Program-made: the position numbers and the translations under genes | In this document: one piece after another, positions 7,917 to 42,642 of the stretch | Numbering within the stretch: position 1 is the first letter of the stretch | Layout of the letters: each line of letters begins with the position of its first letter | The notes under the pieces: model-generated | Seen by the model: only the letters and a program-made list of their open reading frames with translations | Databases searched by the model: none | Told to the model about the DNA's origin: nothing | NCBI GenBank assembly: GCA_963665655.1 | Contig: OY762429.1 | Location: forward strand, 624,503 to 688,502 | Origin: Terriglobia bacterium | GTDB lineage: Bacteria > Acidobacteriota > Terriglobia > Versatilivoradales > Versatilivoraceae | DNA length: 64,000 nucleotides | Reading direction: 5' to 3'

Positions 7917-8798
7917 CTAGACGAATTCCTCCATCAGGTCGTCAAAGAGCTCCTTTTCCATTCCGAGCTTCTGATGAACCAGGGGACCGTCCTTCATGGC
8001 CGGTTCGCTCTCCTCGTAGGTCGGCTGCTCCTCCCGGTAGAAGAGGCCCAGGGGAATGCGATCCCCCCACTCGTAGGCCCGGGTCAAGGCTCCCTGATGG
8101 TCGGTGGCATCGTAGTCCGGGTCATCCTCCAGCTTGTAGACCCGCTTCTTGAACCAGGGGTAGGTGTTGATCTTGTTGTAGGTCACGCAGGGACTGAAGA
8201 CATCCACCAGGGCGAATCCCTTGTGGGCGATGCCGCCGGCGATGACGTCGGCCATGTGTCTGGGCTCCCCCGAAAAGGCCCGGGAAACGTAGGTGGCGCC
8301 GGAGACGATGGCCAGCGCGATGGGGTTGATCGGCATTTCGGCGTTGCCCCGGGGGGTGGACTTGGTGCGTACCTCCTTCATGGTGGTGGGGGAGGCCTGG
8401 CCGGTCGTCAACCCGTAGATCTGATTGTTCATGACGATGTAGGTGAGGTCCAGGTTGCGGCGCATGGCGTGCACGAAGTGACCCAGACCGATGCCGTACC
8501 CGTCGCCGTCCCCGCCGGTGATCACCACGTTCATGTCCTGGTTGGCGAACTTGATCCCGGAAGCCACGGCCACGGCCCGGCCGTGCAGGCTGTGGACGCC
8601 ATAGGCATGGATGTAGCCCGGCAGGTTGGAAGAGCAACCGATCCCGGAGACGGTGAACAGTTCCTCGGGCTTGATGCCCAGCTTTCCGGCCGCCATCTTG
8701 ACGCCCCTGAGAACACCGAAATCGCCACAGCCCGGACACCAGTCCGGATCGATGATGCTTTCATAGGTGCTGATGGGTAAAGAAATCGTCATTTCCAT
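7917..8798 (-). CDS. korB: 2-oxoacid:ferredoxin oxidoreductase, beta (TPP-binding) subunit.
   Basis: CPGCGDFGVL motif and a TPP-binding GDG region. 293 aa. Confidence 0.9.
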   Translation of the reverse strand: MEMTISLPISTYESIIDPDWCPGCGDFGVLRGVKMAAGKLGIKPEELFTVSGIGCSSNLPGYIHAYGVHSLHGRAVAVASGIKFANQDMNVVITGGDGDGYGIGLGHFVHAMRRNLDLTYIVMNNQIYGLTTGQASPTTMKEVRTKSTPRGNAEMPINPIALAIVSGATYVSRAFSGEPRHMADVIAGGIAHKGFALVDVFSPCVTYNKINTYPWFKKRVYKLEDDPDYDATDHQGALTRAYEWGDRIPLGLFYREEQPTYEESEPAMKDGPLVHQKLGMEKELFDDLMEEFV

Positions 8799-8920
8799 AG
8801 GGTGTTAAGCCTCTCCGTTCTCCCCGCGCCCGTTCAGCCGGCGCGGAACCTCAAATCCAAAGCGATTCCAAACCCGATCGATCAGTCGGTCGTGTCGCCG
8901 ACTTCCGTCGGTTGTCCCTC

Positions 8921-10915
8921 TCATTCGGCGGATACCGTCGAGACCGGCTGCCAGGCATAGGTGGATCCGGTTCGCTGCCCGACGAACAGGTCTCCGGTCT
9001 TTTCACCGCCCTTCCGGTTCACCAGTTCGATGCACCAGGTGGGCTCTTCCGCCGACACCCCGTTCCCCACCTGCATGGAGGCCGGACGCACGGCGTTGCC
9101 CAAATGGGTTCGAATGTAGTGGTAGGCGATCTCCTGGGCTTCCTCCCGAGTCACCTCCAGCGACAGCGGCTCGCCTCCTACGATCTCCTTGACCCGGTTC
9201 ACGATGAAGGCCGGCTCGAATGGCTCCCCGTCATACTTCAGGACCATGTCATCCAGGGAGAAGCCGGTCTCGGACCTCAAGTGCTTGGCGAACTGCCCCG
9301 TGTAGTTCACCTCCACGCCTATGGTCTTCCTGCATCCATTCAGGATTTCCAGGGCCTCCTTGGCGTGAAACGGCAGCAGGTACTTGAAATGGAGCTGATT
9401 GGCGGCAATGCCTTCCGATCTCAGGATCTCGGCGGCCTCCCGGATCACGCCCCTGCAGGACCCCCAGCCGACCAGGGTGACGTCCGCATCCTCCGGACCC
9501 TCGATTTGCGGAGGCGGCAGCTCCTTCAGGGCTCCTTCCAGCTTCCTCATGCGCTTTTCCTGCACCTTGCGCCGCACCGGTGGACTGGTGTACTCGTCGC
9601 TGATCAGAATCCCTTCCTCGTCGTGGTCATCGGTGGGAGAAACGTAGACCGTGTTCTTGGTCCCGGGCAGGGCTCGGGGGGATATTCCCGACTCGGTGAA
9701 AGCGTAGCGCTTGTAGGTGCCGTTGCCTTCCGGCCACTCGGTCACCAGTTGGCCCCGGTCGATCACCAGATCGGGCTTGAGCGCATCCCTCTCGATGGTC
9801 TCGGGATGTTCCGAGAGCAGCAGATCGGAGAGAATGATCACCGGGAGCTGGTACTTGTCCGCCAGGTTCAGGGCCTCGGCGGCGGTATAGTAGGCTTCGG
9901 TCACGTCCGCCGGAGCCATGATGATGCGGGGGAAATCCCCTTGGGAAGCCCCCAGCGCCTGGTTCAGATCGGCCTGTTCGGTCTTGGTGGGAATCCCGGT
10001 CGAAGGACCGCCGCGCTGGACCGTGATGAACACGACCGGCGCTTCGATCATGCCGGCCTGACCCACGGCCTCGGTCATCAGGGCAAACCCGCCGCCCGAG
10101 GTGGCGCACATGGAGCGGGCCCCGGCCAGGCCGGCGCCGACAGCCATGTTGGCGACCGCAATTTCGTCCTCGCACTGCTTGACCACGATCCCGCAGCGGT
10201 CGGCATGAGCCACCATCCAGTGCAGGATGGTGGAAGCGGGCGTCATGGGGTAGGCGGAATAGAACTTGCAGCCGGCGGCGACCGCACCCAGGGCCATGGC
10301 TTCGTTTCCGGTGATGAAGGGTCTGCGGATGCGGCTGAAGTTCCATTCATACCCCAGGGGCACGAATTTTTCCTTGGCGTAGTTGTATCCCGCCTTGGCC
10401 ACCTGGACGTTCTGGTTGACCACTTCCCGGCCCTTGTGCTGGAAGGTGTCGGCCAGGACTTCGGCCATCATCTCGAAATCCAGTCCCAGCAGGAAGATGG
10501 CCGCGCCCAGAGATACCGTGTTCTGCATGACGGGAAGCGTTTTCCCCAGCGGCTTCAGCAACTCCCGCACGGGCATCGGCACCGGCAGGACCTGACTCTC
10601 GAAAAGCGAGGAGTCCAGGGTCAGCTTGTCGGAATTGAACAGGACAGCTCCGCCGGGCTCCACTTCTCGGGCATGCCTTTCCAGGGTGTCCTGATTGAGA
10701 GCGATCAGCAGATTCAGGTGGTCTCCGTGAGAGTAGACCTTTTCCTCACCCATCCTCACGCGCAACCAGATGTGGCCCCCGCGGATGATGGACTGGTAAC
10801 TGTTGTAGGCATAGAGATACAGCCCCAAGCGGGAGGCGGTCTTGGCGAAGGTGTCGCCGGTCTTGTCCAGCCCGTCGCCGGCGGCTCCTCCTATTCCCAA
10901 GGTCACTTCTTTCAT
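8921..10915 (-). CDS. korA: 2-oxoacid:ferredoxin oxidoreductase, alpha subunit with the gamma domain fused at the N-terminus (two-subunit OFOR type).
   Basis: 664 aa. The N-terminal gamma-like GIGGAAGDG is followed by the alpha domain. Sits directly upstream of korB. Confidence 0.9.
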   Translation of the reverse strand: MKEVTLGIGGAAGDGLDKTGDTFAKTASRLGLYLYAYNSYQSIIRGGHIWLRVRMGEEKVYSHGDHLNLLIALNQDTLERHAREVEPGGAVLFNSDKLTLDSSLFESQVLPVPMPVRELLKPLGKTLPVMQNTVSLGAAIFLLGLDFEMMAEVLADTFQHKGREVVNQNVQVAKAGYNYAKEKFVPLGYEWNFSRIRRPFITGNEAMALGAVAAGCKFYSAYPMTPASTILHWMVAHADRCGIVVKQCEDEIAVANMAVGAGLAGARSMCATSGGGFALMTEAVGQAGMIEAPVVFITVQRGGPSTGIPTKTEQADLNQALGASQGDFPRIIMAPADVTEAYYTAAEALNLADKYQLPVIILSDLLLSEHPETIERDALKPDLVIDRGQLVTEWPEGNGTYKRYAFTESGISPRALPGTKNTVYVSPTDDHDEEGILISDEYTSPPVRRKVQEKRMRKLEGALKELPPPQIEGPEDADVTLVGWGSCRGVIREAAEILRSEGIAANQLHFKYLLPFHAKEALEILNGCRKTIGVEVNYTGQFAKHLRSETGFSLDDMVLKYDGEPFEPAFIVNRVKEIVGGEPLSLEVTREEAQEIAYHYIRTHLGNAVRPASMQVGNGVSAEEPTWCIELVNRKGGEKTGDLFVGQRTGSTYAWQPVSTVSAE

Positions 10916-11229
10916 GATTCTCCTTTCAAAGCCTGCAACCGGCCGTGCCCGTCACCATGGCGCCGGACCCTCCTGTCCCCGGAGGGCTTCCCAGGCGTCC
11001 ATGGCTTTCCAAAGGAAGACTCCTCGAGCCGTCCACGAGCCGGAAATTCCCACTGCGAAATGTCAGAGTATTCTGAATTAAATATCGTGTGTTCCGGTAA
11101 TGCCGTCGAACCGGGCGGCCTTGCTGTTCCCGAATGATTGCCGGAGCGCCGCCGGCGAAATGAGTTGCCGGGCCATCAAACGCGCTACCCGCGCCGTGTA
11201 TCAGAATATCAGAGATGCCCGTCACGTCG

Positions 11230-11841
11230 CTAACAATAAATCAGCGTCTTCCTCAATCGGTGCGCCGACTCGGCCAGCGAGGGTTGCAGGTATGCCACCG
11301 GCTCCCCCTTCCGGCTGCGCGAAAGCGGACCCTCGGACCCGGGTTCGACCCGCACGGCCACGAACACCGGACCGGGTTCCCGGAGAATCGCGGGGAGGCT
11401 CCGGGCATAGAGCGCCGGATCATCGAAAGCGTAGGCCCTGCCAAACCCCGCCGCCCGGGCCATCCCGGCGAAGTCCATCCGGCCGGCGCCTGCAATGGCT
11501 TGATTTCCGGTAATTTCGTAGGTCCGATTCTCGACCGTGAAGAGGATCAGGTTGGGAGCTCCCGCCTCCACCACCGTCGCCAGGGAACCCAGAGTCATCA
11601 GGAGGCTGCCGTCACCGTTCAGGCAGATGACCCTGCGTTGGGGCTGGGCCAGGGCAATGCCCAGGGCCAGATCGGCAACGTGGCCCATGGCGCTGTCCGC
11701 CGAGGCGAAGTCCAACGGACTGTCCGAGAACCTGGACCAGGGCCGCACCACGCCCATGGTGGTCACCACCACCTCGTCCGTTCTCAGCGACGCCAGGGGT
11801 TGCAGCAATTCCTGCTTGGTCAACACGATCAGGCTCCGCAA
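11230..11841 (-). CDS. TPP-dependent decarboxylase, beta (C-terminal, TPP-binding) subunit, in the family of sulfopyruvate decarboxylase ComE and split phosphonopyruvate decarboxylase.
   Basis: ICLNGDGSLLM..., ~200 aa, no N-terminal pyrimidine-binding (PYR) domain. 13-bp overlap with the upstream gene. Confidence 0.75.
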   Translation of the reverse strand: MRSLIVLTKQELLQPLASLRTDEVVVTTMGVVRPWSRFSDSPLDFASADSAMGHVADLALGIALAQPQRRVICLNGDGSLLMTLGSLATVVEAGAPNLILFTVENRTYEITGNQAIAGAGRMDFAGMARAAGFGRAYAFDDPALYARSLPAILREPGPVFVAVRVEPGSEGPLSRSRKGEPVAYLQPSLAESAHRLRKTLIYC

Positions 11842-13061
11842 AAACAGGATTTGGCGGAGGGCTGGTACTCCAGCGTCAGTTCCGGAGTCTCCAGAGTGAG
11901 GCCTCCCTTGTTTTTGGATTCCACCCAGCGATCCAGAATGCCGGCGGCAATCCAGGCCCGTTCCGGTCGAACCGGACTTCGCGTGGATTGAATCAGGTCC
12001 TCGATCCGGGCGGCCAGGCAGGCCGAGCCGGCACGGTTGGGTTCAGGGGGAAGAAGGAACTGGGTCGATGCCACCCCGGAAACGTCGCGCAGACGGGCCG
12101 CAAAGGTGAAGTCCCCCACGGCTCCGTTGAGCATCAGCACCGCAGCCCTCACCCCGTCGGCATAGTCCACCAGGCAGGCTTCCGGGTGTTCGACCAGCCG
12201 GGGCAATTCCCCGCTGTTGACCAGGTCCCGGGGACGCCCGTCCTTCAAGGTCTCTCCCTGCAGGGAGTCGGAACGGGCCACGGCTGCTTGCAGCAGTTCC
12301 CGGGACCAACGACCGCTGCTGCCGGAGCGCCACACGGCTTGGCCACCCACCCATTGCACCGAACGTACTCCCGTTTCGCCGCCCCTGCGCCGCTCCACCA
12401 TGGCCTGCAGGGTTTCCAGGGCCCGGTAGCGATCGGAGCGCCCGAAGCCGATGCCAACCATCAGGGCCTGCTCCACCCGGCAGCCTGCCGGCAACTCCAG
12501 AGGCGGCAGCCTCCAGGTCATCGGCAGGGAGGATCCGGCCAGCACCGGGAACCCCAGTCGCCGGGAGGTCTCCACCATCTTGCGGGCCTGAGCCAGTCCG
12601 AGCGGTTCATCCCAATAGACCGGAACGGCCCGGCGGTCCTCCTCGAAGACCTTGAGCATCGGCTCGAGCAAGTCGGAGCCTGAAGGACCGCTGCCCGAAT
12701 CCTCTCCCTGGCCGGCGAGCATCAGCACCCCGTCCACGGCCAGCCGGTCCCCGCCGCAACGCAGGGTTTGGGCGACGGAAGGATAGATCCTGAAGCCGAA
12801 CTCGGCGGCGCGTTCCCGGCTCTGGTCCGCTTCAGGCGTGCGGTCCACATGGAGAGAGACCACATCCATGGCGGGCTGGTGCCACTTGCCCTCGCGCGGA
12901 TAGCCGATCAGGAAGCGGTCTGCGACCTGGCGGGCCGGCGAGCCGGGGGTCCAGCGGGAAGCCAGGATGGCCAACCTCATGGCGCCTGGCCGGGTTCGGA
13001 ACGGCAAACCGGCCACCGGGACAGCCGAGGCGGAATTCAGGAAGGTGCGCCTGCCCGTCAC
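11829..13061 (-). CDS. Tat-signal secreted protein of unknown family, paralog B of the next gene. Predicted to start at the GTG at 13059-13061 (TGRRTFLNSASAVPVAGL twin-arginine motif).
   Basis: Shares blocks with paralog A (PAMDVVSL, LAVDGVL, AGSSLPxxWRLPPLE.P, MVERRRGGETGV, EYADG). The GTGA stop/start overlap with paralog A was located by hand. Confidence 0.6.
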   Translation of the reverse strand: MTGRRTFLNSASAVPVAGLPFRTRPGAMRLAILASRWTPGSPARQVADRFLIGYPREGKWHQPAMDVVSLHVDRTPEADQSRERAAEFGFRIYPSVAQTLRCGGDRLAVDGVLMLAGQGEDSGSGPSGSDLLEPMLKVFEEDRRAVPVYWDEPLGLAQARKMVETSRRLGFPVLAGSSLPMTWRLPPLELPAGCRVEQALMVGIGFGRSDRYRALETLQAMVERRRGGETGVRSVQWVGGQAVWRSGSSGRWSRELLQAAVARSDSLQGETLKDGRPRDLVNSGELPRLVEHPEACLVDYADGVRAAVLMLNGAVGDFTFAARLRDVSGVASTQFLLPPEPNRAGSACLAARIEDLIQSTRSPVRPERAWIAAGILDRWVESKNKGGLTLETPELTLEYQPSAKSCFCGA

Positions 13062-14398
13062 GAGTGTCTCCGATAGGTGGGTTCGGGAGTGGGTCGATAG
13101 CGAACCGACAGGTGGGGCGTTTCGACTCGATGCTGGCCCCGCCACAGGGAATCCACGCCGGCCTCGGTCATTCCGCTGGTCAGCAGGGTCCGCTCCACCG
13201 GGTAGGTTGCCCTGCCGGTCAGAAACATCTTCTCGACGCCGTTCACCAGCGGGCTGAAGAAGTTGGCTTCGGCGCCCCCGCCCAACCCGCGCACCGGAAG
13301 GTAAAAGTGTGTTGAAACCAGTCGTTGCGGGTTTTTCAGACGGGCCGCAAAGGTCCAACCCATGGAGAGGCCTTCCAAAAGGAGCAGCGTGGCCTGCATC
13401 CCGTCGGCATATTCGCAGCGGAAGGCCAGAGGCTGATCCAGTTGAGGGCCGGAGTCGGTGACCCGGTCCTTGACCAGCCCGGGTATTTCCTCCAGGGACG
13501 GGTAGCTGTGGTCGAAGCCCTCCCGGGTCGAGGTCAGGGCCAGGCTGCGGCACAGGCAGGCCTCGAAGAGCTCGGGGGCCCAGCCTCCCCGGTCCCAGGA
13601 TCCCGCCCGCAGCGCCTCCCACACCTTGGGGCCGCGGACCGCTTGCAGCGCCGCCACACCGGTTTCACCTCCCCGCCGCCGCTCGACCATGCACTGCATC
13701 GCCTCGAATCCGTGAAAGCCGTAGCTGTCGGCCCCGCCGCCGGCGCCGATCACCATGGCCTCTTCCACCTCGGCGTCCGAGGGAATCTCCAACGGGGGAA
13801 GGCGCCAGGCCACGGGAATGCTGGAACCGGCCATCAAGGCAAAGTCCAGCTCCCTGGCCGTTTCCACCATCTCCTCGGCCCATTCCCATTTCCAGGAAAG
13901 ATGCTTGTCGTTGAACACCGGCGCGCCCCGGCCGCTTGCCCGGAAGACTTCCACGATCTGCCGGAAGAACTCGTAGCGCGGATACAGGGTCTGCCCCTTC
14001 TCGTTCCGGGGGTAGCTCCCGTGCTCTCCGATCAGCAGGACCCCGTCCACCGCCAGTCTGTCTCCACCCCGCGTCAAGGCTTCGGCGATGGTGGGATAGA
14101 TCTTCATGGAGGGATATTGGCGGGCCCGATCGCGGCTGAGATCGCTCTCCCGGACCTGTTCCACGTAGAGCGACACCACATCCATGGGGGGGCGGTGAAA
14201 TCGCCCGCCCCAGTTGTAGCCGCCCAGGAAGCGGTCCACGATATGCTGGCCGTGGGCCCGGCGGCGGTATTCGGTGACCAGGGCGGCGATCTTGGGGCGT
14301 TCGGGCTGCCCGGCGCGGCAGCCCGTGAGCAGCAGCGCCGCGGGAATCCCCGCCATCACCGTTCTGCGGGAAATCATTGGAAGCCGGGAAGAGGTCAT
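13058..14398 (-). CDS. Tat-signal (SRRTVMAGIPAALLLTGC, possible lipoprotein) secreted protein of unknown family, paralog A.
   Basis: 446-aa ORF. ATGA overlap with the upstream MBL gene. No recognisable named domain. Confidence 0.65.
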   Translation of the reverse strand: MTSSRLPMISRRTVMAGIPAALLLTGCRAGQPERPKIAALVTEYRRRAHGQHIVDRFLGGYNWGGRFHRPPMDVVSLYVEQVRESDLSRDRARQYPSMKIYPTIAEALTRGGDRLAVDGVLLIGEHGSYPRNEKGQTLYPRYEFFRQIVEVFRASGRGAPVFNDKHLSWKWEWAEEMVETARELDFALMAGSSIPVAWRLPPLEIPSDAEVEEAMVIGAGGGADSYGFHGFEAMQCMVERRRGGETGVAALQAVRGPKVWEALRAGSWDRGGWAPELFEACLCRSLALTSTREGFDHSYPSLEEIPGLVKDRVTDSGPQLDQPLAFRCEYADGMQATLLLLEGLSMGWTFAARLKNPQRLVSTHFYLPVRGLGGGAEANFFSPLVNGVEKMFLTGRATYPVERTLLTSGMTEAGVDSLWRGQHRVETPHLSVRYRPTPEPTYRRHS

Positions 14399-15366
14399 GG
14401 TCCGCCCAGAATTTCTCCGTGCGGCTTGCCCTCGGCGAGTTCCGCGTACCGCACCCGCACCTGTTCCGCAAACCGATTGCCGACCCAGTTGCCGACGTCG
14501 TCCGACAATTCCACGGTCGTGGCCACGCCGGCTCCGTCCTCCACCGTCACCAGGTCTTCCAAGGGCGTCTTGTCCTCAAAGGCCTTCTCCACGGCGGCGT
14601 TGATTTCCTGGAGGAACTGCCGCTGCCCTTCGGCAACCTCTCGCCCTCCCGAGGGGCCGTGGCCCGGCAGGATGGTTTCGAAGTCCAGCTCCAGGGCCTC
14701 GCTGACCACATTCGGCCAGTTGCCCGTGTTGCCGTCGCCGGTGTAGTTGAAGGGCCCGTTCACGATCGCGTCGCCCGTGCACAGGATCTTTTCGTCCGGC
14801 AGATAGACCATGCCGTCCCCGCGCGTGTGGGCCCATCCGAAGTGATGAAACTCCACCCGCCGGCCGGCTCCTTCCAGCACGTGCGGAACCCGGCTGAATG
14901 TCTCTTGCGGGGGTTGCACCGTATCCTCGCCCACGGCAGCCACATCCTCGCGGTTCCGCGCGGCTTGTTGCCAGCGGGCAGGCTCGTAGCGCTTCATCTC
15001 TTCGGCCACGCCGACATGTGCCAGCGTGGTGGCGCCGGCCCGGGTCCAGACCGCGTTGGCATAGGCATGGTCCCCGTGATGGTGGGTGCCGAACACGTAG
15101 CTGACCGGCTTGGTGGTGACCTGCCTGATATCCGCCATGAGCGCCCGGGCGCCGCTTGGGAAGTTGGCATCCACGACCAGCAGACCTTCTCCGATGTCGA
15201 TGACCACGTTGTTGCAGTGTCCGTGCTCTCGCTCGCCCATCCGGAACCAGACCCCGTCCGTAATCAGCTTGAGGGTGTCGGTCTCGGAAGGAAGCGGCGG
15301 ATCGGAGGCACAGTTCCAGGCCACGCAAAGGCCGATCGCGGTGACGGCTATGAGGACGATTCGCAT
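14395..15366 (-). CDS. MBL-fold metallo-hydrolase with a signal peptide.
   Basis: THHHGDHAYANAVW (HxHxDH) motif. 323 aa. Confidence 0.8.
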   Translation of the reverse strand: MRIVLIAVTAIGLCVAWNCASDPPLPSETDTLKLITDGVWFRMGEREHGHCNNVVIDIGEGLLVVDANFPSGARALMADIRQVTTKPVSYVFGTHHHGDHAYANAVWTRAGATTLAHVGVAEEMKRYEPARWQQAARNREDVAAVGEDTVQPPQETFSRVPHVLEGAGRRVEFHHFGWAHTRGDGMVYLPDEKILCTGDAIVNGPFNYTGDGNTGNWPNVVSEALELDFETILPGHGPSGGREVAEGQRQFLQEINAAVEKAFEDKTPLEDLVTVEDGAGVATTVELSDDVGNWVGNRFAEQVRVRYAELAEGKPHGEILGGP

Positions 15367-15447
15367 GGATCAGTCTCCCTCCGACAGTCTCGTCGTGGTT
15401 CCAAGTGGCACCGATTGTACGCCCTGAGTACCGCAGGTACAAGGATA

Positions 15448-15631
15448 GTGGAGAGTGGAGAGTGGAGAGTGATTAGTGGCTAGTTCTTGATCGACGCGTA
15501 AAGCATCTTGTTGGTCTCGGCAAAATCTTTCAAAGAGCCCACCCAAGTCATCAGGCGCTTGCCTGCTCCAGGAACCCTTGGCTGACAACTCTTCACTCTC
15601 CACTCTTCACTCTCCACTCTCCACTCTCCAC
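15448..15631. repeat. Inverted heptamer microsatellites. (GTGGAGA)3 lies at 15448-15471 and (CACTCTY)5-6 at 15588-15631. They are separated by ~115 bp and could form a long imperfect stem.
   Basis: Direct reading of the sequence. Confidence 0.65.
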
Positions 15632-15698
15632 TTGAACCGTTCAGCCCCCGGGGTATCCGTTCCGCCCAATCGATCCTCGCATTGACCGTCCCCCACTC

Positions 15699-15985
15699 TC
15701 AGGCCACCCAGATGTCCCGGCTGATGATCGACTCCGGTGTCAGAATCTCAGGGCCGGTTTCCTTCACCAGCACCACGTCCTCCAGTCCGTACTTGTTGCT
15801 CACCTCCCAGAGGGGATACCCCCCCGGTGGTAGAAGAAGGGCTCGATGCATAGCAGCAGGCCGTCAACACCGGACCGCTCCATCTCTTCCTGGAGCCGTC
15901 CCAGGCGCCGCTCGAACTCCCGCCGGCTGCAGTCGGCGAAAAATCCGCTTCGTTTCTGGGGGGTGATCTTCGGGCTGTCCGGCAT
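15699..15985 (-). pseudogene. M24 (Xaa-Pro aminopeptidase / creatinase-fold) peptidase remnant. The N-terminal ~45 aa (RRLGRLQEEMERSGVDGLLLCIEPFFYH) is joined out of frame to the C-terminal ~40 aa (GLEDVVLVKETGPEILT). The whole catalytic core is deleted.
   Basis: Hand translation of the two minus-strand frames. Confidence 0.45.
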
Positions 15986-16056
15986 GGATTCTCCCGGGCA
16001 ACAGGATGCAAGGGAGATCGTTGGATGGATTGGGACCGCCTGGGGCGGTCTCAATC

Positions 16057-16590
16057 TCAGGTCATGTCCCGGGTTACCAGCAGGGCGACCGGAGTCGACA
16101 AACGATGGGCCTTCTCGACCCAGGCGTTGACCTTGGGAACGTCCTCATCGCCATGGAGGTAATCGAAGGGCAACCCCCAGGCCTGCAAGGTGGGCTCGGT
16201 GAGCAGCGCCGCCGAGTCCAGGTCGGGACGGCTCAGCAGTAGCGGGTCGGGTTCGCCGGAGCGGTGCCTGACGCGTTCCAGCTTGGCATAGCCCCGAAAG
16301 GTGATCAGACAGAGAAGGGGGATCCTCATCCGCAGGACCGTGCCGCGAAAGCTGTCCCCGCTCTCGAGCAAGCCGGTGTTCTGAATCAGGACGGCCGGGG
16401 CCCGGCCTCCCATCCAAAGCCCGGCTGCCATGGCGAAAGCCTCCCCTTCACGGGTGACCAGGCGGATAACGGGCTCTCCGCCCTCCTTCAGAAGGGAGAA
16501 CAGGGCCGCCGAGCTGTTGTCGGGCAATCCCACCAGGTCGGTGACTCCCGCCCTGCAGAGCGCCCCGACAATGGACCGGGCCTTGGCCAT
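16057..16590 (-). CDS. TPP-dependent decarboxylase, alpha (N-terminal, pyrimidine-binding) subunit, in the family of sulfopyruvate decarboxylase ComD and split phosphonopyruvate decarboxylase.
   Basis: 177 aa with a PYR-domain pattern (TDLVGLPDNSSAALF..., EGEAFAMAAGLW). Sits 4 bp downstream of the PQQ-propeller gene. Confidence 0.75.
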   Translation of the reverse strand: MAKARSIVGALCRAGVTDLVGLPDNSSAALFSLLKEGGEPVIRLVTREGEAFAMAAGLWMGGRAPAVLIQNTGLLESGDSFRGTVLRMRIPLLCLITFRGYAKLERVRHRSGEPDPLLLSRPDLDSAALLTEPTLQAWGLPFDYLHGDEDVPKVNAWVEKAHRLSTPVALLVTRDMT

Positions 16591-16594
16591 GACG

Positions 16595-17929
16595 CTATCT
16601 CAAAGCCAGGTCGAAGCAAGCCATTTCCTGGGAATTTCGAACCAGCAGCAACCCTTCGGAGATGGCCGGGTGATTCCAGGTCCTGCCCCGAATCGCGGAG
16701 AAGCGGGCCAGCTCCTGCTGCCGCTCGGGGTCGGCCTCGACCAGCACCAGTTCGCCCGACTCGGTCAGGACGATCAGGTGATCTCCAGCCAGCAGAAGCT
16801 GTCCATGCCCGTAGCGGCCCCCCTTCCACCTGAGTTCGCCGGTCTCGGCCCGGATGCAGGCCAGGATGCCTTCGTCCAGCCCGTAGATAAACCCGTCCTT
16901 CAGCACCGAGCAGGTGAACTTGTTCTTCATGCGGCGATTCTGCCACAAGGCGCTGGCCGCAAGACCTCCGGAAGTCCGTTGCACCTGCACCACCGCCGCG
17001 CCGTGGCCGTAGCCCGCCGAGATGAAGACCCGATCCTGTCCCAACAGGATCGGTTGGGCGACGTTGACGTCATAGTCGGTGATCCAGGGAAAATCCCAGA
17101 GGAGAGACCCATCCTCGCCCGAGAGCCCCATCATCCGCCTGGCGCTCACAATCAGAAGCTGGGGTTGTCCGGCCAGGGTCACCCACATGGGCGAGGTGTA
17201 GGCCTGCTTGTCACTCAGCGATTTCCACAAGGCATTCCCCGTCTCCTTGTGGTAGGCCGCCACCGATCTGCCGCGGGAACCTCCCGGCAGGACAATGACC
17301 TTCTCACCCACGATCAGGGGCGAAGCCGACATGCCCCAGGTCAGGTTCCTGGCCCGACTGTCCCGCAGAATGTTTCGAGACCAGACCAGGTGCCCCTCGG
17401 AGGCATCCAGGCAGTGCAGCTCTCCGGTGGCTCCCAGCGCGTAGAGTCGGCCCTGGTGCCAGGTGGGAGTGGCCCGGGGCCCGTCCCCACCCAGGGACTC
17501 GTCGAAGAAGGCCTCCCAGGCATGGGTCCAGATCTCATCTCCCGTCCGTAACTCGTAAGCCGCCACCACTTCCCGGGCGCCGCGCTGCTCGATGGTGAAG
17601 GCCCGCCCCTCGGCCAGAACAAAGGAGGCATACCCCCCGCCGACGGTTCGGCGCCAGAGGGGTTTCAGCCCCTGCTCGGGCCAACGGGTGAGGATGGGGG
17701 CTCCCCGATATTGGCCGTCGCGCCTCGGCCCCCTGAAATCGGTCCATTCCTCGGCTGTCGAGGGGGCCGCCGATGCGGTCCCCGCAATGCCGGCAATGGC
17801 AGGAGGCAGAGCAGCCCCCGATGGCCTGGTCTCACTCTCCTTCCAAAACGGGATCAATGCCAAGGGAGCCAGCGCCCCACATGCCAGACCCCGCATCAGG
17901 CTCGAACGCATCCAGGCTTTCAGGATCAT
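16595..17929 (-). CDS. PQQ-like beta-propeller repeat protein (BamB-like) with a signal peptide.
   Basis: Repeated W-propeller blades. 444 aa. Confidence 0.75.
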   Translation of the reverse strand: MILKAWMRSSLMRGLACGALAPLALIPFWKESETRPSGAALPPAIAGIAGTASAAPSTAEEWTDFRGPRRDGQYRGAPILTRWPEQGLKPLWRRTVGGGYASFVLAEGRAFTIEQRGAREVVAAYELRTGDEIWTHAWEAFFDESLGGDGPRATPTWHQGRLYALGATGELHCLDASEGHLVWSRNILRDSRARNLTWGMSASPLIVGEKVIVLPGGSRGRSVAAYHKETGNALWKSLSDKQAYTSPMWVTLAGQPQLLIVSARRMMGLSGEDGSLLWDFPWITDYDVNVAQPILLGQDRVFISAGYGHGAAVVQVQRTSGGLAASALWQNRRMKNKFTCSVLKDGFIYGLDEGILACIRAETGELRWKGGRYGHGQLLLAGDHLIVLTESGELVLVEADPERQQELARFSAIRGRTWNHPAISEGLLLVRNSQEMACFDLALR

Positions 17930-18008
17930 GTCGCCTCCTCAGCCCGGGGCCGCTGGCCCCAGGTTGCCCTGAAGATATCCCAGAGTCTCGGTCAGGCCAA
18001 CCGGAAAA

Positions 18009-18022
18009 AATCCTGTGCATCC
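18009..18022 (+). promoter_or_regulatory. Copy 1 of the 14-mer AATCCTGTGCATCC. It lies within the longer motif AAAAAATCCTGTGCATCCTGCGCATCCATGTTAAAAAA, about 200 bp upstream of the 18224 gene.
   Basis: Exact 14-mer, found three times in the window. Confidence 0.4.
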
Positions 18023-18223
18023 TGCGCATCCATGTTAAAAAACCATCTACACCATGCTTGACTTTGAACCGGTTTCCAGCTTCCAGGCGCAGGCGTTTGT
18101 TTCAGGTAAGCGGCGCCCCTGCCCTGCCGGGCGGATCCTGCGAGAAAGAAACAGGGAAGGCGTCAGCATCGGCATCCATTATTTTCAACAGGTTGCACAA
18201 TCTGTTTCAAATCGGGCCCGATC

Positions 18224-20839
18224 ATGAACCCGGCACCCCGCATGTCTGCTCTCCTCTGGATCTTGCTGCTGGCCCTGGGAAGCCTGGCCTCCACCGGCTG
18301 TTCCCGCCACCCTCAACCTCCGGACTCGGCGCGGCAAACAGCACCCCGGGCCGGCGGGACCTATGCCGCAGCCAAGCACGGCGGCGGCTACATGCACAAC
18401 TACTACCTCCCGCCAACGCCTTCGTCCATGCCCTGGGCCCCCGCCTGGTCTCCGGACGGCAAGCAGATCGCCGTTGGTCTTCATGGCTCCATCTGGCGGA
18501 TCGACCTGGCGAGCTCGGAAGCCTTTGAACTGACCTACGACGAGCACTATCACTCGTCTCCCGACTGGTCCTCCGACGGCAGGTGGATCGTCTACACCGC
18601 CGACCACGGGGGCGACACCATTCAGCTTCAAATCCTGAACCTGGAAACGGGACAGTCCCACGTACTGACCGACGACGCCCACCTCTATGCCGATCCCGTC
18701 TTTTCCCCGGACGGAAACCGGTTGGCCTACGTCTCCACCGAGCCCAGCGGGTACTTCAACATCTACGTGCGTCCCATCCGGGAGGGGCGCTGGGCCGGAC
18801 CGGCCACCGCCCTCACCCGGGACCACTCCTATGGCAAGAATCGCCTCTACTTCGGGGAGTGGGACATGCACATTCAACCCGCCTGGACCCCGGACGGGAA
18901 AGAACTGCTCGTCCTTTCCAACCGGGGCGTCCCCCTGGGATCGGGGCACGTGTGGCGCATGTCGGCCGAAGGGCCGGGCATGGCCAGGGCCGAGCCCATC
19001 CTCAAGGAGCAGAGTCTCTACCGGACCCGCCCCCACGTCTCGCACGATGGAAAGCGCTTCATCTATTCTTCCACCGGCGGGGCCGCAGACCAGTTCAGCC
19101 ACCTCTACGTGCTCCCCATAAACGGCGGGGCACCTTACAAGCTGACCTTCGGAGGCTACGACCACTTCCATCCCCGCTGGTCGCCGGACGGAGAGCGGAT
19201 TGCTTACATCTCGAACCGGCCCCCGCTTCCATCCGGTCCCGGTTTGCCCCGATTGTGGCTGATGGAGACTTACGGAGGCCGCAAGGAGAGAGTGCAGCCT
19301 CGGAAATACCACTGGAAGCGTCCCATGGGCATCCTCCGGGCGGAGGTGCTGGACAGAAGCACCGGCCGCAAGACGGCCGCCCGGATCTACGGGCGAGCGG
19401 CCGACGGAAAGCTTTATCCCCCCGGAGACAGCTACGCTCGCGTCAGCATCTCGGGAGAGCCTCTGTTCCATACCGGCGGAGAATTCGAGATGACTCTGCC
19501 CCCGGGGAAAATGACCGTGGAGGCGGTCAAGGGATTGGAGTACCGCCCGGCCCGGCAGGAGGTGGAGGTTCGGGCCGGCGAGGTCTCCCGGGTCAGCCTG
19601 GTGCTGTCGCCCATGGTCGATATGGCTGCGCGGGGATGGTACAGCGGATCCACCCACGTGCACATGAACTACGGCGGAAACCTGCGGAACACGCTGGAGA
19701 ACCTGATGTTCCTGGCCAGAGCCGAGGATCAGGACGTGGTCTGCGAGCTGATCGCCAACAAGGACAACCGCATCCTGGACTGGGACGCCTTCGTTCCCGA
19801 CCGGATCGAACACCCGGTCTCCATGTCCGATCCCGACCTGGTGGTGATCGTGGGAGAGGAGTACCGCCCGCCCTTTCACGGCCACGTCTCTCTGCTGGGG
19901 CTTCGAGACCATCTCATCTCACCCTTCACCACCGGCTACGAGGGCACCGCCATTGAAAGCCTCTATCCCAGCAACACCGACATGTTCCGCAAGGCCAGGG
20001 CTCAAGGGGCGCTGGTCGGATATGTTCACGCCTATTCCGGAGAAACCGATCCTCTGGAAAGGGGCCTGACCCACGCCAGGACTTTTCCGGTGGATGCGGC
20101 CCTGGGCACGGTCGATACCCTGGAGTGGTCCTCGCCCAACTTGGCCACCCTGCGAGTCTGGCACCATACCCTGAACAATGATCTGGGCATCACCCCGGTG
20201 GGGGGCGAGGACGCCATCACCGACCTGCACCGGTCCACCCTGCCCGGGGCCTTCAGGACCTACGCCCACCTGAAAGGCAAGCTGTCGGCGGAATCCTGGA
20301 TCGAGTCGGTCCGTCAGGGAAGGACCTTCATCAGCAGCGGTCCGCTGCTGGACTTCCGCATCGACGGCCGGATTCCGGGGGACCGGTTGGAACTGCCCCG
20401 CGAAGGAGGCACCATCCGTCTGGAGGCCTCAGTCCGGTCCATCGCTCCTCTGGAAAGGGTGACCCTCTTTCGCAACGGCGAGGTGCTCAAGGAGTTGCCT
20501 CTCACCAAAGGACAGTCGGCGGTCTCCATCGAGGAGGCGCTCGATGTCAGGAAAAGCGGATGGTTCAGCCTGACGGCCATCGGGCCCCGCCGTTCCCGTC
20601 CCCTGGAGACCGGCTACCCCCTGGCCGCTACCAATGCCATCCGGGTCTACGTCGGTGACGGCAAGATTCGCAGCCGTCGCTCGGCCGAGTACTTCATACG
20701 ATGGATCGACCGCCTCAAGCAGCAGGCCGGGGAATGGCCGGATTGGAGATCATCCGAAGAGAAAGCCCACGTTCTGGGGCAGTTCGATGAGGCCAGGGGT
20801 GTCTACGAACGGCTGGCCGAGGAGGCGGATGGGAATTGA
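18224..20839 (+). CDS. Secreted fusion protein. The N-terminus is a TolB-like WD40 beta-propeller. The C-terminus is a PHP-type (CehA/McbA-like) metallohydrolase domain.
   Basis: Signal peptide. SPDG propeller repeats. GSTHVHMNYGGN in the C-terminal half. 871 aa. Confidence 0.75.
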   Translation: MNPAPRMSALLWILLLALGSLASTGCSRHPQPPDSARQTAPRAGGTYAAAKHGGGYMHNYYLPPTPSSMPWAPAWSPDGKQIAVGLHGSIWRIDLASSEAFELTYDEHYHSSPDWSSDGRWIVYTADHGGDTIQLQILNLETGQSHVLTDDAHLYADPVFSPDGNRLAYVSTEPSGYFNIYVRPIREGRWAGPATALTRDHSYGKNRLYFGEWDMHIQPAWTPDGKELLVLSNRGVPLGSGHVWRMSAEGPGMARAEPILKEQSLYRTRPHVSHDGKRFIYSSTGGAADQFSHLYVLPINGGAPYKLTFGGYDHFHPRWSPDGERIAYISNRPPLPSGPGLPRLWLMETYGGRKERVQPRKYHWKRPMGILRAEVLDRSTGRKTAARIYGRAADGKLYPPGDSYARVSISGEPLFHTGGEFEMTLPPGKMTVEAVKGLEYRPARQEVEVRAGEVSRVSLVLSPMVDMAARGWYSGSTHVHMNYGGNLRNTLENLMFLARAEDQDVVCELIANKDNRILDWDAFVPDRIEHPVSMSDPDLVVIVGEEYRPPFHGHVSLLGLRDHLISPFTTGYEGTAIESLYPSNTDMFRKARAQGALVGYVHAYSGETDPLERGLTHARTFPVDAALGTVDTLEWSSPNLATLRVWHHTLNNDLGITPVGGEDAITDLHRSTLPGAFRTYAHLKGKLSAESWIESVRQGRTFISSGPLLDFRIDGRIPGDRLELPREGGTIRLEASVRSIAPLERVTLFRNGEVLKELPLTKGQSAVSIEEALDVRKSGWFSLTAIGPRRSRPLETGYPLAATNAIRVYVGDGKIRSRRSAEYFIRWIDRLKQQAGEWPDWRSSEEKAHVLGQFDEARGVYERLAEEADGN

Positions 20840-21911: not shown

Positions 21912-23291
21912 TTGCGGCAGCCAACGCAAGACACCATGAGAACTCCCTTCCCTTTCCAAAAGTCCGGTTCCGCCCTGCTCCTGCTGGCGATCTGGCTGGT
22001 CACTCCGAGCCGGGCCGCGGACTGGCCCGAATGGCGGGGCAAGGGACGATCGGGGGTCTGGCGCGAAGACGGCATTCTGCAGCGATTTCCCCCGTCGGGC
22101 CTGCAGGTTAAGTGGCGGGAACCCCTGGGTAGCGGCTACGCCGGGCCTGCCGTGGCCGAGGGCCGCGTCTTCGTGCTGGATTTTGCGGCCGAAACCGCCC
22201 GCAAGGGAACCGAACGGGTGCTGGCCCTGGATGAAAACAGCGGGCGCCGCTTATGGACCCGTTCCTGGAAAGCCGACTACTCCGGGCTTTCCGGAAGCTA
22301 TGCCATCGGCCCCCGGGCCACTCCCACGGTGGACGGCAGTCGAGTCTACGTCCTGGGAGCCAAGGGGGCGCTCTATTGCCTCCGTACCGACAACGGCGAG
22401 ATCCTGTGGCAAAAGGACTTCGTGCGGGATTATGGAACCGAGGTCCCCGTCTGGGGCATGGTGGGAGCCCCCCTGGTGGACGGCCCCCGTCTGATTGCCG
22501 TGGTGGGCGGGCAGGACGGAGCCAAGGTGGCGGCCTTCGACAAGCGGACCGGCCGAGAGCTCTGGCGTGCGCTGCCTTCGGACTCGGAACCCGGTTACGC
22601 CCCCCCGATTCTCATCTCAGCCGGCGGACGCCGTCAACTGATCGTCTGGCACCCCAAGGCGGTAAGCGCTCTCGATCCCCGAACGGGTGAGCTCCTCTGG
22701 CAACAGCCTTTTCGGTCGGACAAGGGCCTGTCGGTGGCCACCCCCGTGTTCAGCGGCTCGCGACTCCTGGTCAGCGCCTTTGTGAACGGATCCATGATGC
22801 TGGATCTGGACCGGGAGTCCCCGGCAGCCCGACTGCTCTGGCGAGGCAAGAGCGACAGCGAGATCGACACCGACACGCTCCACTCCCTCATCAGCACACC
22901 GGTCATCGACGGGGACACCCTCTATGGGGTTTGCAGCTATGGGCACCTCAGGGGGCTGAGCGCCGGCACCGGCAAGCGGCTGTGGGAAACACTGGCGGTG
23001 ACCGGGGAGAAGGCGCGCTGGGCCACGGCCTTTCTGGTTCGCCACCAGGATCGATACTTCATCTCCAACGACCGGGGCGAGCTGATCATCGCCAGGCTGT
23101 CGCCCTCGGGCTACCGTGAGATCGACCGGACCCACCTGATCGCTCCCACCTCCCGCAGGGGAATCGGCCGGCGCCAGGCCGGCGCCGTCAACTGGTCCCA
23201 CCCCGCCTACGCCAACCGCCACATCCTCGCCCGCAACGACCGGGAGATCCTCCGCGCCTCCCTGGCACGGACCGCTACCGAGTCGGAGTGA
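21912..23291 (+). CDS. PQQ-like beta-propeller repeat protein with a signal peptide. It is a paralogous type to 16595..17929.
   Basis: 459 aa with W-propeller blades. Confidence 0.75.
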   Translation: MRQPTQDTMRTPFPFQKSGSALLLLAIWLVTPSRAADWPEWRGKGRSGVWREDGILQRFPPSGLQVKWREPLGSGYAGPAVAEGRVFVLDFAAETARKGTERVLALDENSGRRLWTRSWKADYSGLSGSYAIGPRATPTVDGSRVYVLGAKGALYCLRTDNGEILWQKDFVRDYGTEVPVWGMVGAPLVDGPRLIAVVGGQDGAKVAAFDKRTGRELWRALPSDSEPGYAPPILISAGGRRQLIVWHPKAVSALDPRTGELLWQQPFRSDKGLSVATPVFSGSRLLVSAFVNGSMMLDLDRESPAARLLWRGKSDSEIDTDTLHSLISTPVIDGDTLYGVCSYGHLRGLSAGTGKRLWETLAVTGEKARWATAFLVRHQDRYFISNDRGELIIARLSPSGYREIDRTHLIAPTSRRGIGRRQAGAVNWSHPAYANRHILARNDREILRASLARTATESE

Positions 23292-28358: not shown

Positions 28359-29972
28359 TCAGCCCATCCCCACGGTGCGGCCGAAGCTGTCCTGGTAGAT
28401 CCGCGGGTCCACCCGAGCGTCGATGAGGGTCCCGCAACCGGCGCTCATGGCGGCTCGCAGCTCCCGCTCGAAATCCTCGGGCGTGTCCACGGTGGCCGCC
28501 TTCAGTCCGCAGGCCCTGGCCACCTCGGCAAACTGCACCGGATGCAGGTCCAGCCCATAGTCGGGCAGGCTGCGAATTCTCTGGCGGGCTTTCATGGTCC
28601 CCAGGGCCTGATCGTTCACGATCACCAAGGGCACGGTGCCACCGGTGCGGGCCAGCACTTCCAGTTCTCCCAGGCGCATCAGGAGACTGCCGTCGGCTCC
28701 CAGACCGATCATGGGTGTTTCGGGATCGGCCAGGCGGGCGCCGCAGATGGCCGGCAGGGTCAGTCCCATGGTGCGGCCTCCCGAAGTCCCATAGTAGGTT
28801 TCCGGCTTTTCCGCCTGCCAGAGATGCTCCAGCATGCAGATGAAGACTCCCGTCTCGGAAATGAGGATTCCATCCGAAGGCAGCACCCTTCGGCAGATCT
28901 CGATAATGTCCTGGGCGGCCAATCGGGCTCGGCCGGGCCGCTTGAAGGCGGGCAGGACCTCCTGGCGCAGCGCCCGGACCTCGCGGCTGCGAAAGCCGGC
29001 CCGGGCCTGGGGCGCCAGCGCCGGCAGCACGCTCTTGAGGTTGCCGTTGACCCGGACCCCGGGCTGCCGGGACAGGGATCGGTACTCGGGAGAGCTGAGC
29101 ACTTCCGCCGTGGGCAGGTCGCATGTCCAGGGTCCGTGGGTCATGAGGGCATCCACACCCAGCAGCAGCACTCCATCGGCTTTCTCGAAGGCCCTGGACT
29201 CGATGATTCCCGGGGAGTAGATTCCCACAAAGACCCCGGCCCAGCGATCGTGCGATTCGGGAAAGACGCCGCGGGCTTCCATGGTCACCAGGACTGCGGC
29301 TCCCAGGTTCTCCACCAGGGAGAGCAGTTCCCCGGAGGCATCGTCCCGCACCACGTCGGCCCCGGCAATGACCAGCGGCTTGCGCCACTTGGAAAGCAGC
29401 TCCCTGCAGGCCGCGATTTCATGCTCCGGCGCGGGAGCTGCCGGGGTGTGGGCCCGCGGCGGGAGCGGCGGACCGCACTCGGTGCTGCCCAGGTCGGCGG
29501 GAAAGTTGAGCAGGGCCGGCCCCGGCCGACCCTCGGTGGCGCGGTAGCTGGCCTCCTGAACCGCCAGCGGCGCATTCTCGGTGGAAAGCGTCTCCCGATA
29601 GCGTTCAATGCCGCTGAAGAGGCTCAACTGGTCGCAGTGCTGAACCATCTCGTAGCCGGCGGTGGCCGGCGGGCAGGTCTCGCAAACCGCCACCATGGGA
29701 GCCCGTTCGAAGTGAATGTTGGCGGCGCCCCCCACCAGGTTGGCGGCCCCCACCCCTCGAATGGTCAGGGCCAGCCCGGCCGTATCCTTCATCAGGCCGT
29801 AATAGGCGGCCATGATGGCGGCCGAGGACTCGTGGTTCACGCTGACGAAATCCACCCCCAGCTTGCGGCCGGCCTCCATCAGGTCCAAGGGACTGCCGCC
29901 TCCGGGAATGCCAAAGAAATGGCGCAGGTCGCGGGCTCGCGCATCCTCCATGATCAGTTCGGCAATGGTCAT
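28359..29972 (-). CDS. Thiamine-pyrophosphate-dependent enzyme, acetolactate-synthase / benzoylformate-decarboxylase-like. One polypeptide carries the three-domain architecture.
   Basis: 537 aa. N-terminal PYR domain (GIPGGG). C-terminal TPP motif (GADGS...N). Confidence 0.85.
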   Translation of the reverse strand: MTIAELIMEDARARDLRHFFGIPGGGSPLDLMEAGRKLGVDFVSVNHESSAAIMAAYYGLMKDTAGLALTIRGVGAANLVGGAANIHFERAPMVAVCETCPPATAGYEMVQHCDQLSLFSGIERYRETLSTENAPLAVQEASYRATEGRPGPALLNFPADLGSTECGPPLPPRAHTPAAPAPEHEIAACRELLSKWRKPLVIAGADVVRDDASGELLSLVENLGAAVLVTMEARGVFPESHDRWAGVFVGIYSPGIIESRAFEKADGVLLLGVDALMTHGPWTCDLPTAEVLSSPEYRSLSRQPGVRVNGNLKSVLPALAPQARAGFRSREVRALRQEVLPAFKRPGRARLAAQDIIEICRRVLPSDGILISETGVFICMLEHLWQAEKPETYYGTSGGRTMGLTLPAICGARLADPETPMIGLGADGSLLMRLGELEVLARTGGTVPLVIVNDQALGTMKARQRIRSLPDYGLDLHPVQFAEVARACGLKAATVDTPEDFERELRAAMSAGCGTLIDARVDPRIYQDSFGRTVGMG

Positions 29973-37962: not shown

Positions 37963-38007
37963 GGAGCGGGCAGAGCTCAAAGGCGGCGCTTCCTTGGCTG
38001 AACACCG

Positions 38008-38298
38008 TCACCTTCGGACGTCGTACCGTTTCCAATCGGGCAGGTGGGCCGTCATCAGCGCCTTGAAGAGCTTGCCGTGGTTGGGAACGCGCAGGTGCAG
38101 CAACTCATGAGCAATGACGAAATTCTGGAAGTCCGTGTCCTGATCGGCCAGGTCGGCAGCCAGGGTGACGATTCCCGACGTGGAACAGGAACCCCACTTT
38201 CGCGTCATGCGCTGAACGCGAACCAGCCGCGGGCGCACATTCAGGCGTTGCGCCCAGTGCTCTACGCGACCGCGAATGGCTTTGCGCTGATCGTTCAT
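38008..38298 (-). CDS. Short YgjP-like M48/DUF45 zinc metallohydrolase (96 aa, C-terminal HELLH half only). It is translationally coupled (ATGA) to the hsdR stop.
   Basis: KWGSCS...[13 protein letters not shown] motif. Confidence 0.65.
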
Positions 38299-41267: not shown

Positions 41268-41318
41268 TTCCCCTTGTTGGCTGTATCTTTATCTAATTGG
41301 TTTCCCAAGGGGTTGGCG

Positions 41319-41552
41319 ATGATCACCGTGAATGTCCGTGAAGCAAAAACCAACCTGTCCCGCCTGCTGGCGCAAGTCGAGGCAGGCGAGGAGGTCATCA
41401 TCGCCCGCAACGGCAAGCCGGTGGCGCGCCTGGCGCCACTCCAAGAGCGGGGCAGGCCCCAACCCGATGTCTTCAAGGGAAAATTCGTCCTCCCGGACAG
41501 TTTCTTCGACCCGCTGCCTGAGGAAGAGTTGAAAGCGTGGGAAGGTGGTTGA
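41319..41552 (+). CDS. Phd/YefM-family antitoxin, copy 1.
   Basis: MITVNVREAKTNLSRLL... 77 aa. Confidence 0.8.
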   Translation: MITVNVREAKTNLSRLLAQVEAGEEVIIARNGKPVARLAPLQERGRPQPDVFKGKFVLPDSFFDPLPEEELKAWEGG

Positions 41553-41555
41553 GAT

Positions 41556-41625
41556 TGCGACTGCTGCTCGACACCCATGCCCTCATTTGGTGGCTCACCG
41601 AAAGCAGGCGCCTTGGTGTTCCCGC
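41556..41625 (+). pseudogene. vapC (PIN toxin) 5' remnant. Only ~21 codons remain (MRLLLDTHALIWWLTESRRLG) before the sequence runs into R-repeat copy 1.
   Basis: Homologous to the N-terminus of the intact VapC at 42247. Confidence 0.55.
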
Positions 41626-41708
41626 TTGTCGATCATCTATGAACATCAAAGTGCGTTGTCGATCATTTTCTTGAGAAAGTGATCGACAAAGAGCGTTGCT
41701 TGTCATAG
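41611..41708. repeat. R-family repeat, copy 1 (~100 bp). It holds TTGTCGATCA twice in direct orientation and once inverted. These form a hairpin with a 15-bp stem and a 4-nt loop (TTGTCGATCATTTTC-TTGA-GAAAGTGATCGACAA).
   Basis: Direct reading. Copies 2 and 3 lie at 42643-42762 and 44661-44770. Confidence 0.7.
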
Positions 41709-41715
41709 CTCCATG

Positions 41716-41955: not shown

Positions 41956-42006
41956 GCCGAGGCATTAGTCATATCATTAGCTAAACTGACCGGAGAGGAG
42001 CAAGCA

Positions 42007-42243: not shown

Positions 42244-42246
42244 CGG

Positions 42247-42633: not shown

Positions 42634-42642
42634 CGCGCGCCC

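Follow-up and report, generated by a model that had tools for sequence, protein, structure and literature searches.

Why should the two subunits of one enzyme be encoded on either side of a block of genes for exported-type proteins? The question is raised by positions 11230-17929 of a 64,000-nucleotide stretch of contig OY762429.1 from a Terriglobia bacterium (the whole stretch is referred to here as the window), where the alpha-subunit and beta-subunit genes of a split thiamine-diphosphate (TPP) enzyme are separated by a metallo-beta-lactamase-fold (MBL) hydrolase and a tandem of two paralogs, A and B. An earlier note on this DNA had considered either a periplasm-linked pathway built around the split enzyme or an insertion into an ancestral comDE-like operon. 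Comparison with other loci shows that a gene block was inserted between alpha and beta, and the layout very probably arose when, in one lineage, a conserved operon of two genes received an insertion; it would then not represent a new pathway design. Every open reading frame (ORF) previously listed for 11230-17929 was found in place on the minus strand, in the order PQQ_2 propeller, TPP_N alpha subunit, M24 remnant, MBL hydrolase, paralog A, paralog B and TPP_C beta subunit, and the region contains the following features.

16595-17929, minus strand: PQQ_2 (BamB-like) beta-propeller (PF13360, 5e-28) with a hydrophobic N-terminus, 4 bp upstream of alpha
16057-16590, minus strand: alpha subunit, PYR/TPP_N domain, 177 residues (TIGR03845, 7e-15; PF02776, 3e-4)
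15696-16028, minus strand: remnant (pseudogene) of an M24 (creatinase/Xaa-Pro peptidase-type) gene, from blastn against the intact gene of the related locus L007
15443-15632, no strand: inverted repeat of GGAGAGT heptamers in the gap between alpha and MBL
14395-15366, minus strand: MBL-fold hydrolase (PF00753, 2e-17) with a signal- or lipoprotein-like N-terminal sequence
13058-14398, minus strand: paralog A, Gfo/Idh/MocA fold, with a twin-arginine translocation (Tat)-type RR motif and a lipobox; first gene of the A-B tandem
11829-13061, minus strand: paralog B, 36% identical to A; second gene of the tandem
11230-11826, minus strand: beta subunit, PP/TPP_C domain, 198 residues (PF02775, 5e-17), with an intact GDG...N motif
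7917-10915, minus strand: alpha and beta genes of a 2-oxoacid:acceptor oxidoreductase (OFOR; TIGR03710, 8e-188; PF02775 and PFO_beta_C)

GTDB representatives (one genome per species) were scanned with the beta alignment as query, which gave 230 loci, 80 of which were kept, and the proteins of the window were searched against the kept loci by tblastn. Outside the clade of the window, beta directly follows alpha on the same strand in 66/66 evaluable loci (66 of the 68 non-clade loci contain enough upstream sequence), with a median gap of ~18 nt and 57 gaps of no more than 150 nt. These loci span approximately eight phyla (Acidobacteriota, Aminicenantes, Gemmatimonadota, Verrucomicrobia, Rhodothermales/Bacteroidota, Acidimicrobiia, Armatimonadetes, Abditibacteriales and delta-proteobacteria), in agreement with the earlier statement that the subunits are normally adjacent, and A, B and MBL are absent within 10 kb in all of them.

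The interleaved form is found only in 15 loci with beta at least 81% identical, i.e., the window and L001-L014, which are Acidobacteriota metagenome-assembled genomes (MAGs) labeled Candidatus Versatilivorator, Versatilivoraceae or Terriglobia. The acidobacteriotal outgroup loci L027 and L040, with beta 64% and OFOR alpha 83% identical to the window, show the order FTHFS, 2-hydroxyacid dehydrogenase, PQQ_2, PhyH dioxygenase, alpha, beta, OFOR alpha, OFOR beta, M20 peptidase, HAD and GAPDH. The window has the same series from FTHFS to GAPDH, and in addition a PD40 protease and a propeller upstream of alpha and the block of M24 remnant, MBL, A and B. Since L027 and L040 share this long-range synteny and have the alpha-beta pair intact, the block must have been inserted in place; the OFOR genes that follow beta are kept both in L001-L014 and in the two outgroups, and provide a downstream synteny anchor outside the insert. 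Relatives with adjacent subunits and none of the intervening genes, which the earlier note had said would imply a simple insertion, are thereby at hand, and its proposal of an insertion into an ancestral comDE-like operon is borne out by this orthologous locus together with the 66 adjacent pairs. The propeller beside alpha is likewise seen in the clade of the window only, and no such gene occurs upstream of alpha in L027/L040; the propeller kept there (67-71% identical) corresponds to a second PQQ_2 propeller of the window (21912-23291, plus strand), which is 32% identical to the alpha-adjacent copy.

The content of the alpha-beta interval differs within the clade:

L002 and L013: A-B only
L003, L009 and the window: MBL-A-B (the window also has the M24 remnant)
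L007: M24-MBL-A-B
L001 and L014: M24, small ORFs, PSCyt/PSD1, DUF1501, a 181-residue protein (p181) and A-B
L006, L011 and L012: MBL, PSCyt/PSD1, DUF1501, p181 and A-B (in L006 with M24 before MBL)

MBL is absent in L001, L002, L013 and L014 and is an accessory part of the insert. In L006, L011 and L012 no alpha was found in the ~10 kb upstream of beta, a stretch that is filled by the longer insert. The M24 remnant had been recognized in the earlier note, and its sequence (16028-15696) indeed aligns by blastn to both ends of the intact 389-residue gene in L007; an internal deletion of ~980 bp and a frameshift have joined the first codons to the last ~50 codons. Because the M24 gene of the window is a pseudogene, loss is under way in the insert. 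A large block that was subsequently reduced, and an A-B tandem to which further insertions were added, both fit these contents. The intact M24 protein in L001 contains Creatinase_N and Peptidase_M24 domains. M24 is a single 389-residue ORF in L007 (4854-6023) and L006, and is called as 336 plus 64 residues in L001 (2882-4097) and L014, a 1-nt difference due to a frameshift or to an error in the long-read assembly.

The inverted repeat at 15443-15632 is 190 bp long, with arms of ~40 nt made of GGAGAGT heptamers and ~100 nt between the arms, and is unique in the window (6 matches versus 0 expected). The element occurs at the same position in L010 (85% identity over 281 nt), is absent from L003, L007 and L009, and may be a small mobile or structured element.

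The alpha|beta junction has been interrupted independently in other phyla, by a DUF4058 gene in a Verrucomicrobia MAG (L016:9021-9830), by a small toxin-antitoxin-like pair in a Gemmatimonadaceae genome (L072:9417-9922), and by a 6.7-kb insertion that encodes a membrane spermidine-synthase-like protein and a TonB-type receptor (L078:3312-10001), all with both subunits retained; the last insertion has duplicated the first 48 codons of beta. These unrelated insertions indicate that the junction tolerates interruption.

The A-B tandem, in turn, is a module independent of alpha-beta. Homologs of A, none of them named, form >8000 clusters and come from Acidobacteria, Pirellulaceae, Bryobacteraceae and others, and among 80 metagenome loci a B-type paralog follows A within 4-400 nt in 53 of the 60 that could be evaluated. 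Outside the clade, neither alpha nor beta occurs within 8 kb of A-B in any of these metagenome loci (0/80), and seven further loci from Pirellulaceae and other Acidobacteria (L083-L089) also have the tandem without alpha/beta. Its neighbors elsewhere include sugar and sugar-acid genes (GH95, GH38, UxuA, SGL lactonase and HpcH aldolase); PSCyt/PSD1 with DUF1501 recurs beside it (L001, L006, L011, L012, L087, L088/89 and L143), and an MBL gene (53% identical, L105) or a propeller (37%, L153) is found there occasionally.

The separated subunits are intact. Wherever a clade locus covers them, alpha and beta are full-length and free of frameshifts, their cofactor motifs are kept, and the ratios of non-synonymous to synonymous substitution rates (dN/dS), determined against five to seven relatives, are 0.15-0.21 for alpha and 0.11-0.20 for beta. 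The operon is accordingly not broken, a possibility that the earlier note had raised, and as far as sequence can tell alpha-beta is still a working pair.

The following history very probably accounts for these observations. The ancestral operon would have encoded alpha and then beta of a heteromeric cytoplasmic TPP enzyme of the ComDE/RhiEF type. A block of genes for exported proteins entered the ~20-nt alpha|beta spacer in the last shared ancestor of Candidatus Versatilivoraceae, with the independent A-B tandem, i.e., two Gfo/Idh/MocA-fold paralogs with Tat-type signals, as its core. The M24 peptidase, MBL hydrolase, PSCyt/PSD1, DUF1501 and the 181-residue protein would be passengers that arrived with A-B or later and have since been lost to differing extents, so that the window would represent a reduced version with an M24 remnant and with PSCyt/PSD1-DUF1501 gone. 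The PD40 protease and the PQQ_2 propeller reached their place upstream of alpha by a second clade-specific insertion. The two subunits would still function together, beta probably being co-translated behind B and alpha behind the propeller, and the genes of the locus are presumably co-transcribed.

Several points weigh against this explanation. Throughout the family (dS up to ~0.9) the interleaved order and the tight junctions of B with beta and of the propeller with alpha have been retained, which could mean selection for co-expression rather than tolerance. Apart from the heptamer inverted repeat, the insert junctions showed no signature of a mobile element, neither scars nor an integrase nor a target duplication. 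Furthermore, the direction of events is deduced from parsimony and synteny rather than from a formal species tree, and the enzymatic activity of alpha-beta is itself a prediction.

The alternative that survives best is functional recruitment, in which the cytoplasmic alpha-beta enzyme and the exported A-B proteins, together with MBL and the propeller, would now form one co-regulated pathway in Versatilivoraceae; a sugar-like or sulfonated compound could, for instance, be oxidized or hydrolyzed in the periplasm to a 2-oxo acid that alpha-beta would then decarboxylate, and the interleaving would be under selection. The arrangement in all 15 clade loci is in keeping with this, as are the distance of 2-12 nt from the B stop to the beta start in most of them (~390 nt in L001/L014), the propeller-alpha gap of 4-15 nt across the clade, purifying selection on all genes, and the sugar-related neighbors of A-B in other genomes. 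However, A-B and alpha/beta are never together in the 80 + 7 other A-B loci or the 66 other alpha-beta loci, which also speaks against the periplasm-linked pathway of the earlier note, and the two sets of proteins are predicted to reside in different compartments: signals are carried by A, B, MBL and the propeller, whereas no signal peptide is found in alpha or beta. In this clade, paralog B has lost the conserved motifs of its family, and the insert varies among close relatives and contains a pseudogene; a pathway dedicated to the split enzyme gains no support from this variability or from subunits that lack signal peptides. We therefore regard recruitment as unlikely. A similarly low probability is given to a reading in which, after the insertion, the Versatilivoraceae would have settled on an operon that ties the translation of alpha and of beta to exported-protein genes (propeller-alpha...A-B-beta), since the modules would now serve a single substrate stream; independently of this, A-B could represent a very large class of Tat-exported Gfo/Idh/MocA-fold heterodimers, and alpha-beta an orphan, highly conserved decarboxylase of at least eight phyla.

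Decay, in which the insertion would have uncoupled the subunits so that alpha-beta is heading for loss in a graveyard of partly inactivated genes, could draw on the M24 pseudogene, the degenerate motif positions of B and the lack of alpha upstream of beta in L006, L011 and L012, but is highly improbable in view of the intact subunits with their cofactor motifs and low dN/dS (0.11-0.21), and the longer insert of those three loci runs past the 10 kb fetched and so gives no evidence of loss. An assembly artefact is rejected in view of the recurrence of the arrangement in 14 independent assemblies.

Lineage-specific insertion being the preferred explanation, the two families that it brought together can be considered separately. 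The alpha-beta pair is assigned by its sequence features to the ComDE/RhiEF type of split TPP enzymes. Both hallmarks of the superfamily are present, i.e., the GDG...N motif of the PP domain and the catalytic Glu of the PYR domain, and these domains reside on separate polypeptides of 198 and 177 residues, respectively, which is the ComDE-type split. G76-D77-G78...N105 of beta (the GDG-x(24-27)-N cofactor/Mg motif) is invariant in the alignment, and the invariant segment LDFASADSAMGH is also kept; in alpha, the Glu of TREGEA is invariant over 57 sequences and retained in the window, as is the QNxGL...GD...RG segment. The curated models are missed by a wide margin: alpha scores 55.2 bits with TIGR03845 (cut-off 147.95) and 37.9 bits with TIGR03297 (fused Ppd; cut-off 312.5), and beta scores 99.1 bits with TIGR03846 (3e-28; cut-off 221.5) and 105.1 bits with TIGR03297 (4e-30; cut-off 312.5). 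The top curated matches of beta are PRK06163, phosphonopyruvate decarboxylase and sulfopyruvate decarboxylase beta (1e-31 to 3e-28), all of them below cut-off. The previous ComD/ComE-like label thus holds at the superfamily level, but does not extend to the curated sulfopyruvate and phosphonopyruvate decarboxylases. Most likely the pair catalyzes the decarboxylation of a 2-oxo acid, and alpha and beta presumably form a heteromer.

Three characterized systems offer a comparison. RhiEF is a heteromeric phosphonopyruvate decarboxylase from the rhizocticin pathway of Bacillus subtilis (PDB 9IZ3/9IZ4; PMC12141560); ComDE is described, by the account of Graupner et al. (2000) cited in PMC12141560, as the sulfopyruvate decarboxylase of coenzyme M biosynthesis in Methanocaldococcus jannaschii; and LumK/LumL is a thiamin-dependent heterocycle decarboxylase of riboflavin catabolism, which acts on a quinoxaline carboxylate and consists of two proteins that need co-expression (PMC12746152). 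Because the known split enzymes act on sulfopyruvate, phosphonopyruvate and a quinoxaline carboxylate, a substrate of alpha-beta is not assignable. The window pair resembles ComDE in having two small subunits with PYR and PP domains and no middle domain, in the adjacent gene order of the ancestral arrangement, and in that the ComDE and Ppd models score best; it differs in falling far below the equivalog cut-offs, in annotated neighbors without coenzyme M or sulfolactate genes, and in belonging to a bacterial family of many phyla that is unusually conserved (beta is 61-70% identical between phyla). The ComDE assembly is alpha6beta6. RhiEF has the same domain split as the window pair and is its nearest solved structure (beta profile versus RhiF, 5e-13; alpha versus RhiE, 9IZ3_A, 3e-5), whereas the window lacks a phosphonate cluster context and stays below the TIGR03297 cut-off. 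The likeness to LumK/LumL, drawn from description and not from sequence, lies in the two-protein TPP decarboxylase and indicates that substrates beyond sulfo- and phosphonopyruvate are possible for the split type; a lum-type neighborhood is lacking in the window.

Genomic context adds little to this. The motif EDKx5NS, which we take to be the signature of phosphoenolpyruvate (PEP) mutase, was found in no frame of the 64-kb window in a motif search of its six-frame translation, consistent with the earlier observation that no pepM is visible. Neither comABC nor sulfolactate or sulfoacetaldehyde genes (xsc, slcD) are among the annotated genes of the window, for which ORF annotation is partial, or among the recurrent neighbors in the 66 loci. 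Clustering of ORFs in 68 loci gave lineage-restricted neighbors of alpha-beta (SDR, 8; GGT, 7; DHDPS-family, 6; PEP-synthase regulatory kinase, 6) and, with crude ORF calling, no universal partner across phyla. A literature search returned nothing on this enzyme family in Acidobacteria and no publications on "Versatilivorator".

A and B are 36% identical to each other (E 6e-77), and neither has a match in Pfam or NCBIfam even at E<=10, PF01408 and PF02894 included. Both nevertheless have the N-terminal Rossmann-like domain and the C-terminal alpha/beta-fold domain of Gfo/Idh/MocA proteins, a family that includes the Tat-exported glucose-fructose oxidoreductase of Zymomonas and NAD-dependent glycosidases (GH109; sulfoquinovosidase, 8QC2/8ZN9). 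The A-B proteins differ from Gfo/Idh/MocA oxidoreductases in the missing PF01408 match, in their obligate-looking tandem of paralogs, in being ~100 residues longer, and in the absence of the GxGxxG dinucleotide loop after strand 1 (KIAALVTEYRRRAHGQH), where TEYRRRAHGQH is found instead. At the EKP position lies an E-H-G segment, and the A-B family conserves a D..H motif. A link to sulfoquinovose was considered and rejected: the fold matches to sulfoquinovosidase are of a generic kind for this family and rank below those to GenD2 and inositol dehydrogenases, and A-B is never beside alpha-beta elsewhere, despite the resemblance of the latter to sulfopyruvate decarboxylase.

The description of A and B as Tat-secreted paralogs is supported by their twin-arginine motifs, with SRRTVM and an LTGC lipobox in A (ISRRTVMAGIPAALLLTGC) and GRRTFL in B (GRRTFLNSASAVPVAGL), each with a hydrophobic stretch behind it, whereas export itself is predicted from these motifs. 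An SRRxFL-type motif occurs in ~30 of 42 sampled family members, the Pirellulaceae forms being without it. B of the clade lacks both the GEHG...NEKGQ...YPRYEFF segment, with a 5-residue deletion, and D..H (as checked in the B genes of the window, L001 and L002), while the two are still present in the B orthologs of Pirellulaceae and other Acidobacteria; the evolution of B in the clade is also faster (dN/dS 0.22-0.36). This suggests that B is a non-catalytic partner in Versatilivoraceae.

The locus is thus a cautionary case, in that a striking layout of a split enzyme and a secreted cluster in all probability reflects lineage-specific insertion rather than the design of a new pathway. The main value of the finding lies in its by-products, both of which are candidates for biochemical characterization: an orphan split TPP family, highly conserved between phyla, that lacks a fixed genomic partner and matches none of the curated models for ComDE or Ppd, and an abundant Gfo/Idh/MocA-fold tandem, common in Acidobacteriota and Planctomycetota, that has no entry in the profile databases.

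With respect to the remaining genes of the cluster, the MBL hydrolase scores 64 bits with PF00753 (cut-off 22.7) and contains HHHGDH, which conforms to HxHxDH; its top NCBIfam match is TIGR04559 (SoxH-related; 1e-27), below cut-off. The propeller at 16595-17929 reaches 30.1 bits with the TIGR03075 model for pyrroloquinoline quinone (PQQ) dehydrogenases (cut-off 480) and is, on this profile evidence, a BamB-like propeller and not a PQQ dehydrogenase; its dN/dS is 0.18-0.20. The MBL/A and A/B junctions are 4-bp overlaps. At the B/beta junction, a 13-bp overlap had been proposed; since homologs begin with MLTK and a GGAG lies 7 nt upstream, translation of beta most likely begins at GTG 11826, 2 nt past the stop of B. 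The 4.2 kb described earlier as tightly coupled is not so throughout: a 690-bp stretch between alpha and MBL has no intact gene and contains only the M24 pseudogene and the 190-bp inverted repeat. A promoter and terminator scan of 10800-18400 gave counts not above those in shuffled sequence, and is uninformative on transcription units.

Two further observations concern the wider window. Three TPP-dependent systems lie inside 22 kb, namely the split pair, OFOR and a full-length three-domain TPP enzyme (28359-29972, minus strand; TPP_N, TPP_M and TPP_C; 537 residues) that is unrelated to the split pair. The region 38000-52000, with a GC content of 0.54-0.61 versus ~0.64, encodes a type I restriction enzyme R subunit (38295-41267) and a HATPase_c_3 protein (47768-50350), and is probably an acquired defense island.

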